From Ignavibacteria bacterium (lineage in GTDB: Bacteria > Bacteroidota > Ignavibacteria > Kapaibacteriales > UBA2268): a stretch of 59,177 bases of DNA. The DNA is taken from contig JAOAGZ010000004.1 of NCBI GenBank assembly GCA_026415495.1, positions 1-59,177 of the forward strand. The letters are read 5' to 3'. The translations under genes were made by a program, and so were the position numbers. Below the pieces are notes generated by a model. The model saw only the letters and a program-made list of their open reading frames with translations. It was not told where the DNA came from and searched no databases. Below are positions 26,517 to 33,580 of this stretch, piece after piece (within the stretch, counting starts at the first letter, position 1; each line of letters begins with the position of its first letter).

Positions 26517-27713
26517 ATGAGTAAACGTTTACGAGTTTTATTTTTAACAGCAAGATTTCCATATCCATTGATTGGAGGCGATAGACTAAAGCCTTATTAT
26601 ATTTTGAAATATCTGGGCAAACATCACGATGTTACTTTAGTAACCTTTCATCAAGGTGCAGATTTACCTAAAAGTTATATTAACGAAATAGAAAAATTAG
26701 GTGTTAAAGTAATTGTAATTCCGCTCGACCCTGTTTCGGCAGGTTTGAAAGCAGGGATGAAGCTCATAACGAAAAGCCCACTCGAAATAGATTATTATTA
26801 TTCAAATAGTTTCAAAAAAGCAGTAGAAGAATTGCAACCTGAAAGGAATTTTGATGTTGCAATTGCTTTTTTTATGCGAACAGCAGAGTATATAAAAGAA
26901 TTAAGAATACCCAAAATATTAATGGCAGAAGATTGCAGAACAATTTATCAATATCGTTCGTATAAGGAATCAACAAGTTTGCTGCAAAAATTTGTAAGAC
27001 ATTGGGAATACAATAAATTAAAAAAATACGAGCCTGAAATTGTTAAATATTTTGATATAGTAACATTTGTAAGTAACGACGATATAAAAGAGATGCAAAA
27101 GTTAAACAGTGGAGTTGAATACAGATTACTATCGAATGGTGTTGATTTAAACAGGTATACATTTAACAACGACATAAAAAACCGGGAAGGCATACTGTTC
27201 GCTGGGAAGCTTGATGTTTGGGCAAATCAGATAATGATTAATACAATAGTAAATGAGATATTGCCTGAAATATTGGCAAAATTGCCGGAAGTAGAGTTTC
27301 ATATAGCAGGGGCAAAACCACCACACAGCGTGATGTCGCTCAAGACCAAGAAAAACATTAAGCTTCATATTGATGTACCTGATATGTTGCCTTATTTGCA
27401 TAGTGCGAGAGTATTTTTGCATCCACATTCAGGTGGCTCAGGCATTCAGAATAAATTGTTAGAAGCAATGGCAAGCGGATGTCCTGTAATTACAACTCCT
27501 ACGGGCAATCAAGGAATATATGCTAAGAATGAAGAAAGTGCAATAATATGCAATACGAAAGAAGAAATGATACGATATGCAGTTAAGATACTAAAAGATG
27601 AAGAATTTGCATCAAAACTTATAAAAAATGCAAGAGTGCTAATCGAAGAAAAGCACTCCTGGGAAGCAATATATAAGCAGTTAGATAGTATTCTTGATGA
27701 ATTGCTGGATTAA
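26517..27713 (+). CDS. GT4 family glycosyltransferase
   Basis: RFPYPLIGGDRL, NGVD, GSGIQNKLLEAMASGCPVITT; ATG at 26517. Confidence 0.9.
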   Translation: MSKRLRVLFLTARFPYPLIGGDRLKPYYILKYLGKHHDVTLVTFHQGADLPKSYINEIEKLGVKVIVIPLDPVSAGLKAGMKLITKSPLEIDYYYSNSFKKAVEELQPERNFDVAIAFFMRTAEYIKELRIPKILMAEDCRTIYQYRSYKESTSLLQKFVRHWEYNKLKKYEPEIVKYFDIVTFVSNDDIKEMQKLNSGVEYRLLSNGVDLNRYTFNNDIKNREGILFAGKLDVWANQIMINTIVNEILPEILAKLPEVEFHIAGAKPPHSVMSLKTKKNIKLHIDVPDMLPYLHSARVFLHPHSGGSGIQNKLLEAMASGCPVITTPTGNQGIYAKNEESAIICNTKEEMIRYAVKILKDEEFASKLIKNARVLIEEKHSWEAIYKQLDSILDELLD

Positions 27714-27715
27714 GC

Positions 27716-28168
27716 TTAATTAAATGGCTTAAGCAATGGAAAATCTTTTCCAATAACAACAGTTGAACGAACGAACAAGGTAGAATCTATAGCACTAACT
27801 ACCAAGGAATCCGGCACACCGATAGCATAAGCAACCTTTCTTGCACTGCGAACATCCCCGAGCCTATCGAGAACGAATGATTTTTCTTCTTTTTTTGGAT
27901 AATTACCAATTTCGACTACATCAAATCCACGAAGGCGTAAAAATTCCATTACTTTGGCTGCAAGTCCAGTTTCTCCGCAGGCATTTAGAACGTTCACCTG
28001 AATCACGACATCGTTTTGGCTTGTATTAGCTCCGTTATCAATTTCAGCCTGAACAGGTGGAGAAATAATAACCCGATTAATAAAAGAAGAAAGCATAACA
28101 ATAACAATTAAGCTGAAAGAAACCAGCAATAAAATATTAGCAGTTTTGTTGTTTGAAATAATTTTCAT
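27716..28168 (-). CDS. LytR C-terminal domain membrane protein
   Basis: N-terminal TM, VNVLNACGETGLA, GFDV.EIGNY, TVVIGKDF. Confidence 0.88.
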   Translation of the reverse strand: MKIISNNKTANILLLVSFSLIVIVMLSSFINRVIISPPVQAEIDNGANTSQNDVVIQVNVLNACGETGLAAKVMEFLRLRGFDVVEIGNYPKKEEKSFVLDRLGDVRSARKVAYAIGVPDSLVVSAIDSTLFVRSTVVIGKDFPLLKPFN

Positions 28169-28221
28169 ATTCCCCCCAAAAATGATAAATAATCACAGGG
28201 GAATTATCAATTTTTGTGCCA

Positions 28222-29199
28222 TTATATTTCCCACGTGCCTTTATCAGGGAAATAAATTTGCATTTTTGTATCACCAGCTTTAACGGAGACGGTGCGAGAG
28301 ATTGTATCGCCGGTGTCTTCGCCTAATATTTTGATGCCGCGTTTCAATAGTCCGGCTTTGACGGCAACAGTATTACGTTGACCAATGCTGAAATATTCAC
28401 CGAGTTCGATTTTAGTTTTTGCACCACCAGCGATTTTAGCGAATATTTTTTCCTTAGGGCAGCCCAATTCATTCATTTTTTGCAACAAGGCATCAACAGC
28501 AGTATCAGCGAAATATCCGGGTAGTTTTTCAGCTTTTTCTTTGTCTGTATTTGATTGAGGAAGAGCAACGTGGGCAAGCCCGACAACATTTTTAGAAGGA
28601 CAGAATAATCCCAGACCAATACAAGAGCCAAGAGCGAATATTTTTAAAACTTTGTTAGGATCGTTGGAAATATCCATAGCTCCCATACCGAGAATAATCT
28701 GATTTGTTTTGGCAGTTCTATCAAGATGGTTACTTGGAAGCTTGAATTCTTTTTTAACTTTTTTGAGATGGCTTACATCTTGAGTATATGCAAGTTTAAT
28801 TTTATATATCAGCTGGGAAAACAGCTCAGGCAAAGCACGAGCGCCGGCACCCGGCTTAGGCTGGAAGTCTACAGCACCTGCTTCGAAGGCTTCTTTCGTT
28901 ATTTGAGAATCTTTTTCTGTTAAGGCACTGAGCACAATAGTTGGGATAGGATTGACGGGCATCAGGTTATGCAGGAACTGAATACCGTTCATACGAGGCA
29001 TTTCCATATCAAGGATGATAACGTCGGGCTTTAATCTATTAACCTGATTAAGAGCAATGTAGCCGTCAGTAGCAGTGCCGACAACATCAATCATAGGATC
29101 TTTTGCTAAGCCTTTTGCTAAAATATCAAGCACCAAAGCTTGATCATCAACTATTAAAACTTTAATCTTTTGATTACTGGTATTAGTATTTTCTTGCAT
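28222..29199 (-). CDS. Fusion of a CheB-type response-regulator receiver domain and a CheD glutamine deamidase
   Basis: N-half IKVLIVDD...PDVIILDMEMPRMNG...VLSALT...GAVDFQPKP. C-half ALGSCIG...GLAHVALP...FADTA...KIAGGA...IGQRN...EDTG..SRTV, with the CheD catalytic Cys and His present. Confidence 0.88.
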   Translation of the reverse strand: MQENTNTSNQKIKVLIVDDQALVLDILAKGLAKDPMIDVVGTATDGYIALNQVNRLKPDVIILDMEMPRMNGIQFLHNLMPVNPIPTIVLSALTEKDSQITKEAFEAGAVDFQPKPGAGARALPELFSQLIYKIKLAYTQDVSHLKKVKKEFKLPSNHLDRTAKTNQIILGMGAMDISNDPNKVLKIFALGSCIGLGLFCPSKNVVGLAHVALPQSNTDKEKAEKLPGYFADTAVDALLQKMNELGCPKEKIFAKIAGGAKTKIELGEYFSIGQRNTVAVKAGLLKRGIKILGEDTGDTISRTVSVKAGDTKMQIYFPDKGTWEI

Positions 29200-29260
29200 A
29201 TTATTTTCTCAAAAAAGTATAAATATTTTTTTCACTAATTACAAAATTAATAATATCACA

Positions 29261-32200
29261 TTATTTTTTATCAACTAAATCATTAATACTGGAAACAAGC
29301 GTATCGAAATTAACAGGTTTACTGATATAATCGTTAGCACCGGCAGCAAAGCATCTGTCGCGATCGCCGGGCATTGCAAGTGCAGTAAGAGCGATAATAG
29401 GAATATGTGAAGTATTATGATCATTTTTCAAAATACGAATGGCTTCGATACCATCCATTTTGGGCATTTGAATATCCATCAAAATAATATCAGGTTTGTA
29501 TTCAATAGCCGATTCGATTGCTTCTTTACCATTTCGGGCAACCAGCACTGAATAACCAGCATATTCTAAAAATGCTTCCATAGTTTCAAGGTTTGCTTCG
29601 TTATCCTCAGCCAAGAGGATAAGTATCTTTTCATTTGTCATATCATTTATCTCCGAATCTACAAGTAATTTCGCCTTTTGTTTTTCAAGTTTCAGATCTA
29701 CCTTATTCAATGTTTCATATAAGGTAATAAGTTTATATGGCTTTTGCACATATCCATCTGCCCCATTAGCAATAGCGCGTGTTTTTTCTTTTAATATCGA
29801 AACGATTACAACGGGAATATATTTGTGTTCTTCGTGCAATTTTATGTGCTTTAAATAATCCCAACCTGATTTGTCCCAAAGAAGAACATCAAGGATTACA
29901 ATATCATATTTTTTTTGATAGAGAGTATCTTCAATTTTTTGTTCAAAATCATAGAAATCGGACACAATGCCAAAGCGTTCGAGGTCTTGCCTGAGAAGTT
30001 CTGCATCTTCTTTGGAGCTATTAATAAGAAGAGCATTCTTTATATAAGAAAATTGTTTGTTTAGCAACTCATCGTAATAAGCATCGAAAGCGTTTTTGTT
30101 CTTTATCGGGAGAGTAACAGTAAACTTGCTACCAACTCCGAACTGACTTTCAACGGCAACACTGCCACCCATCATTTCGGTTAATTTAGCGACTAAGGTA
30201 AGTCCTAATCCAGTGCCTTCATATTCACGTGAAAGATTGCTGCTAATTTGAGAAAATGGTTTGAAAAGTTTATTCATATCTTCTTGGCGAATACCAATTC
30301 CAGTATCCCACACTGTGAAATGAATGAGATTATTATCGAGTTCTGCAGAGATAGATAATCCGGCAGAACCACCTTTAGGAGTAAATTTGACAGCGTTGTT
30401 GAGAAGATTAATTAAAACTTGTTTTGTGCGGATTTGGTCTGCATAAATTTCCTTTGGTGTGTCCTGCTGAATATCAAGATGCAGAGAAATATCTTTTTTA
30501 TTAGCCATTTGCCGGATAAAGTTCATAGAAGAATGTGCAATTTGCTCAACAGAACAATCTTCCAAATAGATTTCAAATTTTCCGGCTTCTATTTTGGAAA
30601 TGTCTAAAATATCATTTATTAAATTTAGCAGATGATGACCACTATCGTGAATGGTAGTCAGAGCACGTTGGAAACGATCATTGGAATATATTTCCTGATG
30701 CTTAAGGAGAATTTCCGAGAGCCCGAGAATTGCATTAAGAGGAGTTCGCAGTTCGTGGCTCATATTAGCAAGGAATTCGTCTTTTGTTCGGATTGCACGT
30801 TCGAGCTCTGCGTTGAGGGCACTAAGTTCTTCGGTGCGTTCCATTACACGTTCAGCAAGAAGGCGGCGTTCAAGATTAAGAGCTTCTTCAATTTTTTTCC
30901 GATAAATAACCATTGCAATTTGAGTTGAGACAAACACGAGAATATCTTTTGTAAGTTCATCGAATCTAACATCCTGATTGTAGCTTTTAACTGCGATGAC
31001 ACCAATAGTTTGATTCCCAATTGTTTTCAAAGGCACATCCAGCCAATATTTAGGAATTACGCCCTGTATTTCAATAGTTCGATTTGAAGATAATTCCATC
31101 AGTTTTTCTTCGTCGAGAAGCTGAAAATGCCCGGTATTAATTACATATTCGACTAAACCATTTCCAAATGGATAAGGTCCGCTAAAAGAGGGCTTTGGTG
31201 AATCAATTTCGTCAACAAAATAAGGGAAGTGTATTTCGTTACGTTCAGGATCATAAATCGCAATATAGAAATTACTGGCAAAGATGAGTTGAGAAATAGA
31301 ATGATGAATAAATTTATAAAGATCCTGGAGATTATCAAGATTATACGCTGCTTCGGAAATGCTATAAACAGCTTGCTGTAATTTTTCTGACAATTTGCGT
31401 TGAGAAATATCTTCGGCTGTACCTTCGATAAAAAGAACATTACCGTTTGCATCCCTAACCACTCTTGATTTTTCCAGAACATTAAGAATTGAACCATCTT
31501 TTTTTATCCAGGTGCTTTCAAAAACCTGAACTTCATCGCTCGAAAGAATAGAGTTCAGAAAAGATTGTCTTTCAGATGAGCTGAGAAATCCTTCGAAATT
31601 TAAATTTCGATCTTTTAGTTCATTAATTGAATCAAAACCGAGCATTTTAACAAGAGTTGGATTGGCGAGAATAATTTTGCCATCAAGAGTGGAGCGGTAA
31701 ATTCCAACCGGTACATTATTAAATAAGTTTCGATAAATTTCACGACTGCGTTTGAGTTCTTCTTCAATACGAATACGCTCCTGAATCTCCATCTGGAGTT
31801 TCATTGTTCGTTTTTCGATAATAGATTCAAGTTCGTGGTTTATGCGTTTAATGTCGTCTTCAAGTTTTTTGAATTCAGTAATATCGCGAGCAATACCGAT
31901 TAATCCAATTGGATTTCCTTCCGGGTCGAAAAACGGTGTTTTGATATTGTCTAAAGTATGCAGAGTGTTATCGGAAAAGCGTAGTAACTGTTCCGAGCGA
32001 ACAGTCGTTTTTGTTTCAAAAACGGCTTTATCAAAATCGGTAAAGGCATCAGCTTCATCTTTAGAAAAAAGATCGTAGTCAGTTTTACCGATTATCGCAT
32101 TTTTTGGAAGGTTAAGAAACTTGCAGTAAGCTTCGTTGCAATTAATGTATTTTCCTGAAATATCTTTAACTACAATAAAATCTGGCACATTATCAATTAG

Positions 32201-33580
32201 TTTGGAGAGTAATTCCGACTGCTTTTGAATTTCGAGAGTTCGTTCTAAAACTGTTTGTTCTAATTCGAGATTTGTTTTGGAAAGAATTTTTTCAGCTTCT
32301 TTGAATTGAGTAATATCATTAATAAAAATACAAGCACCTGCAATTTCTTCACCGACTTTGATCGGATAAAGAGAAATTTCGTAATAGATAGATGTATTTT
32401 TTATTAATACATCATATACAAAGGTTGATGAAATTCCTTTATAAGCATTTTCAAATTTATCAAGAATAGCAGGGACATTAATAAAAAGAGAATTCAGATC
32501 ACATTTGGCAGTAACATCGTTGCCTGAAATAAATTTAACAGCATCAATGAAGACTTGATTATATTTTGTTATTGCTTTATGAATATCAAAAAGAGCAATC
32601 CCGATGTGTGAATAATTTATAGCGGTTGAAAGGTTTGCTTCGATTAATTTTTGCTGTTCTTCGGCAATTTTTTTGTATGTAATATCTCTTAAAGTAACAA
32701 AAATCAGGTTGTATCCATCTTTCTGAATTGGTTTTAGATATACTTCTGTATAAATCAACTGGCTATTAGAATTAAGATGCACCCATTCAAAATTATTTAC
32801 ACCTTTAGAGTAAGCTATATCTATCATTAGTTTAGCTTTCTCAACTGAACTTGTGCCATCGGGTTGGAAAGGAGGAGAGAAATCATAAGGATGCTTACCG
32901 ATAATATCGCTTTTGCTTTGCAGACCAAAAATTTTCAATGCTTGCTGATTGCAATCGGTATAAGTATCTCCATTGAGAAAATAAAAGGCATCGGCTGCTT
33001 GTTCGAAGAAAAAAGAATAGAGCTTTTGCTGCTCTTCGATGATTTTTTGATTTTGCTCAACTTCTGTATTATCAATAAATGCCGCATAAAATTCAGTTTG
33101 TTTGTCTCTGATAATTGCTTTGACAACACCAGACAAACTAATGACAGAACCATTAGCAGATTGAATTCTAATATAGCACGGGATAGACTCATTAAAATCG
33201 ATAGCCTCGTTGCAAGAATTAAAGAAGTTGTCAATATAATCTGAGAGAATAAAAGAAGTAATATGCTTTCCAATAATCTGGTGTGTAGGTAATCCAAGAA
33301 CTGTGGAAGTGCTTTTATTAGCAGAGATAATTTTTCCTTCGGAATCAATATTAAAAAAAAGCACAGGAGAACTATCGTAAAGGAATTTATACCAGTCGCG
33401 GGAAACATCTAGTTCGTGTCTGATTAGATTTAACTCATTATTTCTAATGGAAATATCAATAAGATAATTTTTAATTTCTTCAAAGTCTGGTTCAATTTCT
33501 TTGGCGACTTTCTGACAATCAGGGCAGGATACGCTGCGCATTTTCTTTAAAATATTTTCTATAGTAGAAAAAGCATCCAT
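29261..33580 (-). CDS. Cytoplasmic hybrid sensor histidine kinase (5 PAS, GAF, HisKA, HATPase, 2 REC)
   Basis: PAS/PAC repeats ending DIT/DIS; GAF (NFYIAIYD...FPYFVDE); FLANMSHELRTPLNAI; NLLNNAVKFT, DTGIG, GTGLGL; two receiver domains; no TM. Confidence 0.93.
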   Translation of the reverse strand: MDAFSTIENILKKMRSVSCPDCQKVAKEIEPDFEEIKNYLIDISIRNNELNLIRHELDVSRDWYKFLYDSSPVLFFNIDSEGKIISANKSTSTVLGLPTHQIIGKHITSFILSDYIDNFFNSCNEAIDFNESIPCYIRIQSANGSVISLSGVVKAIIRDKQTEFYAAFIDNTEVEQNQKIIEEQQKLYSFFFEQAADAFYFLNGDTYTDCNQQALKIFGLQSKSDIIGKHPYDFSPPFQPDGTSSVEKAKLMIDIAYSKGVNNFEWVHLNSNSQLIYTEVYLKPIQKDGYNLIFVTLRDITYKKIAEEQQKLIEANLSTAINYSHIGIALFDIHKAITKYNQVFIDAVKFISGNDVTAKCDLNSLFINVPAILDKFENAYKGISSTFVYDVLIKNTSIYYEISLYPIKVGEEIAGACIFINDITQFKEAEKILSKTNLELEQTVLERTLEIQKQSELLSKLIDNVPDFIVVKDISGKYINCNEAYCKFLNLPKNAIIGKTDYDLFSKDEADAFTDFDKAVFETKTTVRSEQLLRFSDNTLHTLDNIKTPFFDPEGNPIGLIGIARDITEFKKLEDDIKRINHELESIIEKRTMKLQMEIQERIRIEEELKRSREIYRNLFNNVPVGIYRSTLDGKIILANPTLVKMLGFDSINELKDRNLNFEGFLSSSERQSFLNSILSSDEVQVFESTWIKKDGSILNVLEKSRVVRDANGNVLFIEGTAEDISQRKLSEKLQQAVYSISEAAYNLDNLQDLYKFIHHSISQLIFASNFYIAIYDPERNEIHFPYFVDEIDSPKPSFSGPYPFGNGLVEYVINTGHFQLLDEEKLMELSSNRTIEIQGVIPKYWLDVPLKTIGNQTIGVIAVKSYNQDVRFDELTKDILVFVSTQIAMVIYRKKIEEALNLERRLLAERVMERTEELSALNAELERAIRTKDEFLANMSHELRTPLNAILGLSEILLKHQEIYSNDRFQRALTTIHDSGHHLLNLINDILDISKIEAGKFEIYLEDCSVEQIAHSSMNFIRQMANKKDISLHLDIQQDTPKEIYADQIRTKQVLINLLNNAVKFTPKGGSAGLSISAELDNNLIHFTVWDTGIGIRQEDMNKLFKPFSQISSNLSREYEGTGLGLTLVAKLTEMMGGSVAVESQFGVGSKFTVTLPIKNKNAFDAYYDELLNKQFSYIKNALLINSSKEDAELLRQDLERFGIVSDFYDFEQKIEDTLYQKKYDIVILDVLLWDKSGWDYLKHIKLHEEHKYIPVVIVSILKEKTRAIANGADGYVQKPYKLITLYETLNKVDLKLEKQKAKLLVDSEINDMTNEKILILLAEDNEANLETMEAFLEYAGYSVLVARNGKEAIESAIEYKPDIILMDIQMPKMDGIEAIRILKNDHNTSHIPIIALTALAMPGDRDRCFAAGANDYISKPVNFDTLVSSINDLVDKK

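Follow-up and report, generated by a model that had tools for sequence, protein, structure and literature searches.

We analyzed a stretch of 59,177 nucleotides (nt) from an Ignavibacteria bacterium (GenBank assembly GCA_026415495.1, contig JAOAGZ010000004.1; hereafter the window), in which positions 28222 to 29199 encode a protein that joins a CheB-type receiver (REC) to a CheD domain and that we refer to as REC-CheD. The gene is real and conserved, and it consists of the receiver and linker of CheB followed by a CheD domain that replaces the methylesterase. Its parts are as follows:

28222..29199, (-) strand: whole REC-CheD gene, 325 codons plus stop, called from the open reading frame (ORF) list, Pfam matches to REC and CheD, homologs, and independent contigs
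28795..29166, (-) strand: CheB-type receiver domain, amino acids (aa) 12-135, called from Pfam, NCBIfam, PDB, identity to the CheB of the same genome, and the modeled fold
29008..29010, (-) strand: codon GAT of Asp64, the residue predicted to be phosphorylated, which aligns with DxEMP in CheB structures
28705..28794, (-) strand: linker, aa 136-165, the end of a long helix (119-138) and then an extended segment
28225..28704, (-) strand: CheD domain, aa 166-325, called from Pfam CheD and from phmmer and Foldseek matches to 2f9z_C
28621..28623, (-) strand: codon TGT of Cys193, the CheD catalytic Cys, aligned to the GSC motif of Thermotoga maritima CheD
28570..28572, (-) strand: codon CAC of His210, the CheD catalytic His, aligned to the AHV.LP motif of T. 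maritima CheD

An earlier reading made from the letters alone (the sequence-only reading) had described aa ~12-135 as a CheB-type receiver with its Asp, Ser, and Lys intact and had proposed that CheD, with its Cys and His, stands where the methylesterase is missing. Both descriptions agree with our searches, and the motifs on which they were based are all in the translation (KVLIVDD, VVGTATDGYIA, PDVIILDMEMPRMNG, VLSALT, GAVDFQPKP, ALGSC, and AHVALP). Pfam places Response_reg at aa 14-117 (E = 1.7e-21, above the gathering cut-off) and CheD (PF03975) at aa 213-315 (E = 9.7e-24; 84 bits against a cut-off of 25), and no match to CheB_methylest (PF01339) was returned for the 325-aa protein. The top NCBIfam match is CheB (PRK00742, 1.7e-39), which is restricted to profile positions 2-153 of 357, i.e., receiver and linker only; its score of 136 lies below the cut-off of 293. 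Because this match is partial and below its cut-off and PF01339 gave none, REC-CheD is not a CheB, and the reach of the NCBIfam CheB match to profile position 153-159 indicates that the CheB linker has been retained. CheD equivalog models rank next (aa 166-323), and their scores below the full-length cut-offs (100.8 against 240) are as expected for a fusion.

The nearest PDB entries of the N-terminal half are those of CheB (6ymz, 1a2o, and 3t8y), with which REC-CheD shares an N-terminal receiver bearing the Asp, Ser, and Lys and then a linker helix. All of D18, D19, D64, S91, and K115 are present, which comprise the acidic pocket, phospho-acceptor, Ser, and Lys. Its catalytic domain, unlike that of CheB, adopts the unrelated CheD fold, in which the active site is a Cys-His pair, and is not the CheB methylesterase. 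The C-terminal half matches T. maritima CheD 2f9z_C at 2.2e-20 (phmmer), and the Cys of GSC and the His of AHV.LP fall on the residues that are reportedly catalytic in that enzyme. REC-CheD is thus like stand-alone CheD (2f9z_C and that of Bacillus subtilis) in Pfam match, fold, and aligned Cys and His, and it differs in having ~165 extra N-terminal residues, which are the receiver and linker.

An AlphaFold2 model built on an alignment of 62 rows gave a mean predicted local distance difference test score (pLDDT) of 90.3 and a predicted template modeling score (pTM) of 0.84. Using Foldseek, the CheD half of the model was superimposed on 2f9z_C with a template modeling score (TM, target) of 0.90 and a root-mean-square deviation of 1.7 Å over 164 columns (E = 1.8e-15), and the receiver half on the CheB receiver 3t8y with a TM of 0.91. 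The linker is modeled with a pLDDT of 77-80 in blocks within aa 141-160. Predicting the receiver (aa 8-140) and CheD domain (aa 160-325) as two chains gave a median score of 0.43, and the one control gave 0.26, values that speak neither for nor against contact between the two domains within the protein. The pTM of 0.84 is the sole hint in the model that receiver and CheD domain may adopt a defined arrangement.

The residues required by this architecture are conserved among homologs. D19, D64, S91, K115, C193, and H210 are invariant in 62/62 aligned fusion proteins, down to 36% identity, as are G191, S192, and a further set of positions in the CheD half; D18 is conserved in at least 90% of these proteins, and the length of the linker differs between two clades of the fusion. 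A protein search returned 3974 relatives, and ~118 of the best 120 clusters carry both Pfam domains, with full-length homologs among them that are 99-35% identical. The proteins of these ~118 clusters are ~320 aa long, or ~350-385 aa in the second clade, and come from NCBI, JGI, ENA, and Logan assemblies named Kapabacteria/Kapaibacterium, Ignavibacteria, or Bacteroidota. In species-representative genomes, 37 loci (L027-L063) encode homologs of 56-99% identity, all full-length except L063, which is cut by a contig end. An N-terminal extension of the size of this fusion was found in only ~6-8 among the best 150 of 4379 CheD representatives, which indicates that REC-CheD is a small minority of CheDs. 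A search aimed at longer fused forms found none above 570 aa, a result that is weak evidence.

The sequence-only reading had pointed to the junction as the place where a chimera would show. The genome containing the window (2.22 Mb; the window's contig is C108 in our numbering) is a fragmented, metagenome-style assembly of 163 contigs that is 83% complete with 5% contamination, which would be compatible with an assembly or binning artifact in which the 5' end of a cheB was wrongly joined to a cheD gene. However, two separate studies each yielded a contig (32,408 nt and 30,267 nt) that covers positions 27600-29700, with 17 and 28 substitutions, respectively, and no indel or joint was found in either contig over this interval. 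A record from a third run also bridges 28655-28965. Furthermore, the architecture of the ~118 clusters described above recurs across several sources, and 34 of the 81 family genomes examined carry the fusion, including the single-contig genomes G160, G166, and G167. A chimeric junction is ruled out by these observations, and we consider an artifact of this kind scarcely credible.

DNA nearly identical to positions 27600-29700 is also found in runs X1-X20 of 15 studies, which are labeled hot springs, activated sludge, sediment, anaerobic digester, and microbial fuel cell. Four of these runs were aligned to the interval, and the organism or close strains appear to be widespread in engineered and natural anoxic habitats. 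Contigs of the RNA library X7 cover 27600-28789, 28858-29174, and 29156-29306, although such coverage is no proof of transcription.

Origin of the receiver and distribution of the fusion

The receiver and linker of REC-CheD (aa 10-146) share 56% identity with the N-terminus of a CheB encoded in the same genome on contig C118. All other receivers of the genome are at most 38% identical, and that of a hybrid kinase encoded next to REC-CheD is 30% identical. As the sequence-only reading had proposed, the receiver was placed in a tree with those of CheB, for which 90 receiver segments and 141 columns were used in a quick search. Both clades of the fusion and two groups of CheB paralogs formed one group, with a support of 98 in the Shimodaira-Hasegawa-like approximate likelihood ratio test (SH-aLRT), apart from CheY and other response regulators. 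Judged by identity and tree position, the receiver of REC-CheD is derived from CheB, and the tree would allow for either one or two fusion events.

The closest stand-alone CheD that we saw is encoded on an Oligoflexus contig (164 aa, 47% identity), where the gene overlaps the stop codon of cheB by 4 nt in a cluster with the order cheW-cheR-cheB-cheD-cheY-cheX. It is plausible that such an adjacency of cheB and cheD was the unfused starting arrangement. REC-CheD also neatly illustrates the remodeling of an adaptation module through a domain swap, with the receiver taken from the neighboring cheB. A search for CheD in 121 genomes of the class, which is a coarse sample, gave 6 matches, and the five others are in frames of stand-alone size.

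We evaluated the distribution of the fusion in 81 genomes of the same family as the window's genome, which are relatives and for which counts are consequently not independent. CheD is encoded by 34 of these genomes, almost always in frames of 318-370 aa, which corresponds to the fused form, with additional stand-alone copies in G160 and G167 only. The MCPsignal domain of methyl-accepting chemotaxis proteins (MCPs) is found in 63/81 genomes and in 33 of the 34 that are CheD-positive, and CheD is found in only 1 of the 18 genomes that have no MCP. An ortholog of the C118 CheB (at least 60% identity) is present in 34/34 CheD-positive genomes and in 1/47 CheD-negative genomes, which indicates that the fusion travels with one specific che operon. 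The lone CheD-negative genome with a C118-type CheB (G201) is 85% complete and congeneric with a CheD-positive genome. Within a sample of the order (201 genomes), the fusion is present in 25/76 genomes of family f1, to which the window's genome belongs, and in 9/11 of the sister family f30, and none turned up in the remaining nine families (113 genomes).

A side observation concerns the C118-type CheB itself. In two congeneric genomes, the ortholog lies within an open frame of 1137 aa (G132:C1:141957-143009 and G191:C7:133208-134260), and it may be fused there to the following gene, which in the window's genome encodes a hybrid kinase.

Chemotaxis genes, the che operon, and CheC

The sequence-only reading had noted that the 59 kb of the window hold no che, MCP, or flagellar gene, and had proposed listing such genes across the genome. 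Whole-genome profile searches bore out the first point for six families, as MCPsignal, CheW, CheR, CheB_methylest, CheC, and Flagellin_N gave no match on C108. Elsewhere, the genome encodes 4 MCPs, 3 CheR proteins, 3 CheB proteins, ~10 CheW-domain matches that include two confirmed CheA proteins of 780 and 684 aa, and 5-6 flagellin matches, and REC-CheD is its only CheD. Contig C118 carries an operon with the order CheA-CheW-CheR-CheB-hybrid kinase (REC-REC-PAS-HisKA-HATPase-Hpt)-REC. Glutamine occurs in methylation-site-like motifs of 3/4 MCPs of the genome, which makes these MCPs plausible substrates of REC-CheD.

The relationship between REC-CheD and the che operon is visible in family f30. 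In genome G149, the operon consists of CheA, MCP, CheR, CheB, REC-CheD (385 aa), a 116-aa ORF, CheY, Hpt-REC, and a hybrid kinase (REC-REC-HisKA-HATPase-Hpt), and the C118 operon matches this order but lacks the gene of the fusion. In 6/9 f30 loci, a CheB catalytic domain is encoded directly upstream of REC-CheD and CheY directly downstream. REC-CheD resembles CheB both in having a receiver ahead of a domain that is predicted to modify MCPs and in the position of its gene, which directly follows cheB. In family f1, REC-CheD has moved out of the che operon, and its commonest neighbors are a Peptidase_S13 gene and an ABC-permease gene, which precede it in 15-16/30 loci.

These observations bear on the suggestion of the sequence-only reading that the substrate may not be a chemoreceptor, according to which REC-CheD would be a phospho-switchable deamidase unconnected with chemotaxis. 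Such a role would fit its position in its own family, where it is never beside che genes and its neighbors have cell-envelope or housekeeping functions (Peptidase_S13, ABC permease, LytR_C, and glycosyltransferase), and would fit the one CheD-positive genome, G202, that has no detected MCP. However, the near-complete co-occurrence with MCPs, the C118-type CheB ortholog in every CheD-positive genome, the che-operon position in most sister-family loci, and the CheB-type receiver all place REC-CheD among chemosensory components. We conclude that REC-CheD is a component of a chemotaxis-type pathway of the ordinary kind, the other genes of which lie elsewhere in the genome, and consider a substrate outside chemotaxis very improbable; that part of the sequence-only reading is not supported.

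We also investigated the relationship of REC-CheD to CheC. In Bacillus and Thermotoga, feedback to CheD runs through phosphorylated CheY (CheY-P) and CheC, and many bacteria have CheD without CheC. Yuan et al. 2012 (PMC3513319) place Met101 and Phe102 of B. subtilis CheD at the interface with CheC and describe the pair as conserved only in species that have CheC. The GGASMF segment of T. maritima CheD aligns to GGAKTK in REC-CheD, which replaces Met-Phe with Thr-Lys, and among the 62 fusion sequences this Thr is invariant and the next position is variable. By this alignment, the T. maritima pair is probably the equivalent of the two B. subtilis residues, in which case REC-CheD would lack the Met-Phe pair that Yuan et al. 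2012 link to CheC binding.

Pfam CheC gave no match in the genome. However, tblastn with CheC-like proteins of relatives detected a 204-aa homolog on contig C33, which overturned the absence of CheC indicated by the Pfam search. This CheC/CheX-like protein (C33:15589-16200, (-) strand; L131:4587-5201) is encoded beside a 125-aa CheY-like receiver and a PAS histidine kinase, matches Pfam CheX at 1.9e-4, below the cut-off, and was detected by way of a relative (57% identity) whose own score exceeds the CheC cut-off. Using the C33 protein as query, no CheC-like gene was found in 19/34 CheD-positive genomes, several of which are 96-100% complete. Taken together, the replaced Met-Phe pair, with the role described for it in PMC3513319, and the 19/34 genomes with no detected CheC suggest that the fusion may be independent of CheC.

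Proposed function and competing explanations

Based on these findings, REC-CheD is probably a chemoreceptor-modifying or adaptation protein of a chemosensory pathway, i.e., a CheD deamidase that has acquired the receiver and linker of CheB and is phosphorylated by CheA. As a CheD, it would be a glutamine deamidase and possibly also a methylesterase. The CheA of the C118 operon would phosphorylate Asp64, as for the paralogous receiver of CheB, and phosphorylation would shift the seating of the receiver on the CheD domain, either through a CheB-like relief or through a change of interaction. This shift may gate access of CheD to the methylation-site region of MCPs, with an outcome that could be Gln-to-Glu deamidation or methylesterase action, or else receptor binding that modulates CheA. 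In each case, the fused receiver would feed kinase activity directly back to CheD.

A CheB receiver and linker on CheD make direct phosphorylation control the natural inference. The sequence-only reading had proposed a CheD placed under such control by a domain swap, and its account stands for the architecture and the CheB-type receiver; the switch, along with its phosphodonor, direction, and substrate, is what we infer.

Several observations weigh against this assignment. First, the branch order within the group of REC-CheD and CheB receivers is weakly supported (83-90). Second, the phyletic counts overstate independence because the compared genomes are relatives, and the CheD-positive genome without a detected MCP, G202, is 94% complete in 340 contigs, although its congener G168 has an MCP. 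Third, the position aligned to Thr21 of T. maritima CheD, reportedly a third active-site residue, is Ile. Fourth, the cheB and cheY flanks of the f30 loci are found in 0/11 f1 loci, and a che neighbor of any kind in 0/30. Fifth, a histidine kinase is encoded 61 nt upstream of the start of REC-CheD and is a possible phosphodonor in the window's genus. Finally, the CheC/CheX-like gene on C33 adjoins a CheY gene, and CheC-like homologs, found in 19/81 genomes of the family, are present in 15/34 CheD-positive genomes and 4/47 CheD-negative genomes; because of this gene and this enrichment, a CheC route is possible in the window's genome.

The kinase and the gene on the other side of REC-CheD are as follows:

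29261..33580, (-) strand: hybrid histidine kinase of 1439 aa, in which Pfam finds several PAS domains, HisKA, HATPase_c, and a C-terminal pair of REC domains
27716..28168, (-) strand: 150-aa LytR_C protein, downstream of REC-CheD (Pfam LytR_C, 2e-14)

If the 1439-aa kinase controls the fusion, the two proteins would form a self-contained two-component system that is not driven by CheA and that, in the window's genus, would convey a redox, light, or metabolite signal to receptor modification or to another target. The two genes are on the same strand, no terminator-like site was called between them, and L027-L030, the four closest loci, preserve this arrangement; a hybrid kinase is furthermore part of the che operon in G149 and on C118. 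However, the adjacency is kept only at identities of at least 91%, and the kinase is encoded next to the fusion in 0/25 further loci (L034-L063, at most 72% identity). No Hpt domain was found in the kinase using Pfam, which leaves it without a means to relay phosphate from its own receivers. Additionally, the receiver of the fusion is far closer to that of CheB than to that of the kinase (56% against 30% identity), and the phyletic profile of the fusion tracks the C118-type CheB. We therefore regard control by the adjacent kinase as unlikely.

REC-CheD could also act mainly without catalysis, by binding receptors in a phosphorylation-dependent manner and thereby modulating CheA activity or by serving as a phosphate sink that rivals CheY and CheB, and deamidation would then be a minor, once-only maturation, as reported for the stand-alone CheD of B. 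subtilis. Yuan et al. 2012 (PMC3513319) assign a minor part in B. subtilis chemotaxis to the deamidase activity of CheD and the major part to its binding functions. A CheB-type receiver, as suggested by identity and tree position, would also be expected to compete for phosphoryl groups of CheA. In contrast, Cys193 and His210 are invariant in all 62 aligned proteins, even where overall identity falls to 36%, which speaks for selection on catalysis, and the CheC-binding Met-Phe pair that matters for the binding role in B. subtilis is missing from REC-CheD. A mainly non-catalytic role is thus rather unlikely, and we favor the assignment of REC-CheD as a CheA-phosphorylated chemoreceptor deamidase or adaptation protein.

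That assignment has a functional analog in the module of CheC, CheD, and CheY-P of B. subtilis and T. maritima, in which the level of a phosphorylated receiver is similarly fed back to CheD. In that module, CheY is a separate protein that acts through CheC, whereas the receiver of REC-CheD is covalently joined. The module also contrasts with the majority of CheD-positive genomes in our family sample, which have no detected CheC-like gene, although the window's genome keeps one. It is conceivable, if doubtful, that REC-CheD is a third kind of phosphorylation-gated receptor-modifying enzyme that stands beside CheB and reads CheA directly, which would place the CheY-P/CheC/CheD loop within one polypeptide.

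Receptor deamidation is normally regarded as a one-time maturation step. If REC-CheD is such a third kind of enzyme, deamidation or the binding of CheD to receptors would become a signal-dependent feedback step, and in the window's genus the PAS-rich hybrid kinase might add a second, non-CheA input to chemoreceptors. The regulation and role of CheD, as an enzyme or as a receptor-binding modulator, are unsettled outside Bacillus and Thermotoga, and the fusion provides a directly testable case, in one lineage, of whether phosphorylation switches CheD activity or receptor binding. It also raises the question of whether CheB and REC-CheD, both under one CheA, act on the same sites. The fusion points to a rewired regulation of CheD and not to a new kind of system or a new class of substrate.

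The sequence-only reading had held that its proposal would fall if fusions of REC and CheD were common and already characterized in ordinary che operons. Such fusions are common and do occur in ordinary che operons, but no characterizing paper was found. No publication that names a REC-CheD fusion was found in the full-text literature, a scope outside which lie subscription-only classifications, response-regulator censuses, and supplements, and the passages on CheD in PMC2577667 and PMC9239204 mention no fusion. Protein names also differ among sources, as the automatic names of JGI list both domains and names sourced from NCBI are 'response regulator', which hides the only CheD of these genomes and affects their annotation.

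Further observations at the locus and in the genome

The LytR_C neighbor is kept only in L027-L030 and L033. A scan of promoter-like sites returned 10, which is not above the 7.0 (standard deviation 2.3) obtained in shuffled sequences, and the scan is uninformative for promoters of this phylum.

In 11/30 loci, REC-CheD is immediately followed, in the same orientation, by a strongly conserved ORF of ~113 aa that lacks Pfam matches (L055:10975-11316, (+) strand, and 10 more, e.g., L035, L036, L042-L044, L054, and L056-L059), with the core '...LRVLEQQINS...GEK.K.Q.YITKCYGSLTSFNF...'. A search of the window's genome (83% complete) returned no homolog of it. We rejected this ORF as an obligate partner of REC-CheD, given its presence in 11/30 loci only and the lack of a homolog in the window's genome; it is also unrelated to the 116-aa ORF of G149.

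The genome encodes a third, divergent CheB of 345 aa on contig C109 (C109:473-1510; L134), with a REC and a CheB_methylest domain. This CheB shares 34% identity with the C118 CheB in the catalytic domain, has a receiver on a very long branch of the receiver tree, and is followed by a gene for an FAD-dependent oxidoreductase and not by che genes. A second che cluster, on contig C44 (L133:5022-9803), encodes CheR, CheY, a 125-aa ORF, a 320-aa CheZ-like protein, and the 684-aa CheA. The 320-aa protein matches Pfam CheZ at 1.2e-7 (32.3 bits against a cut-off of 30.7), and a CheZ-like phosphatase is possibly noteworthy in this phylum.

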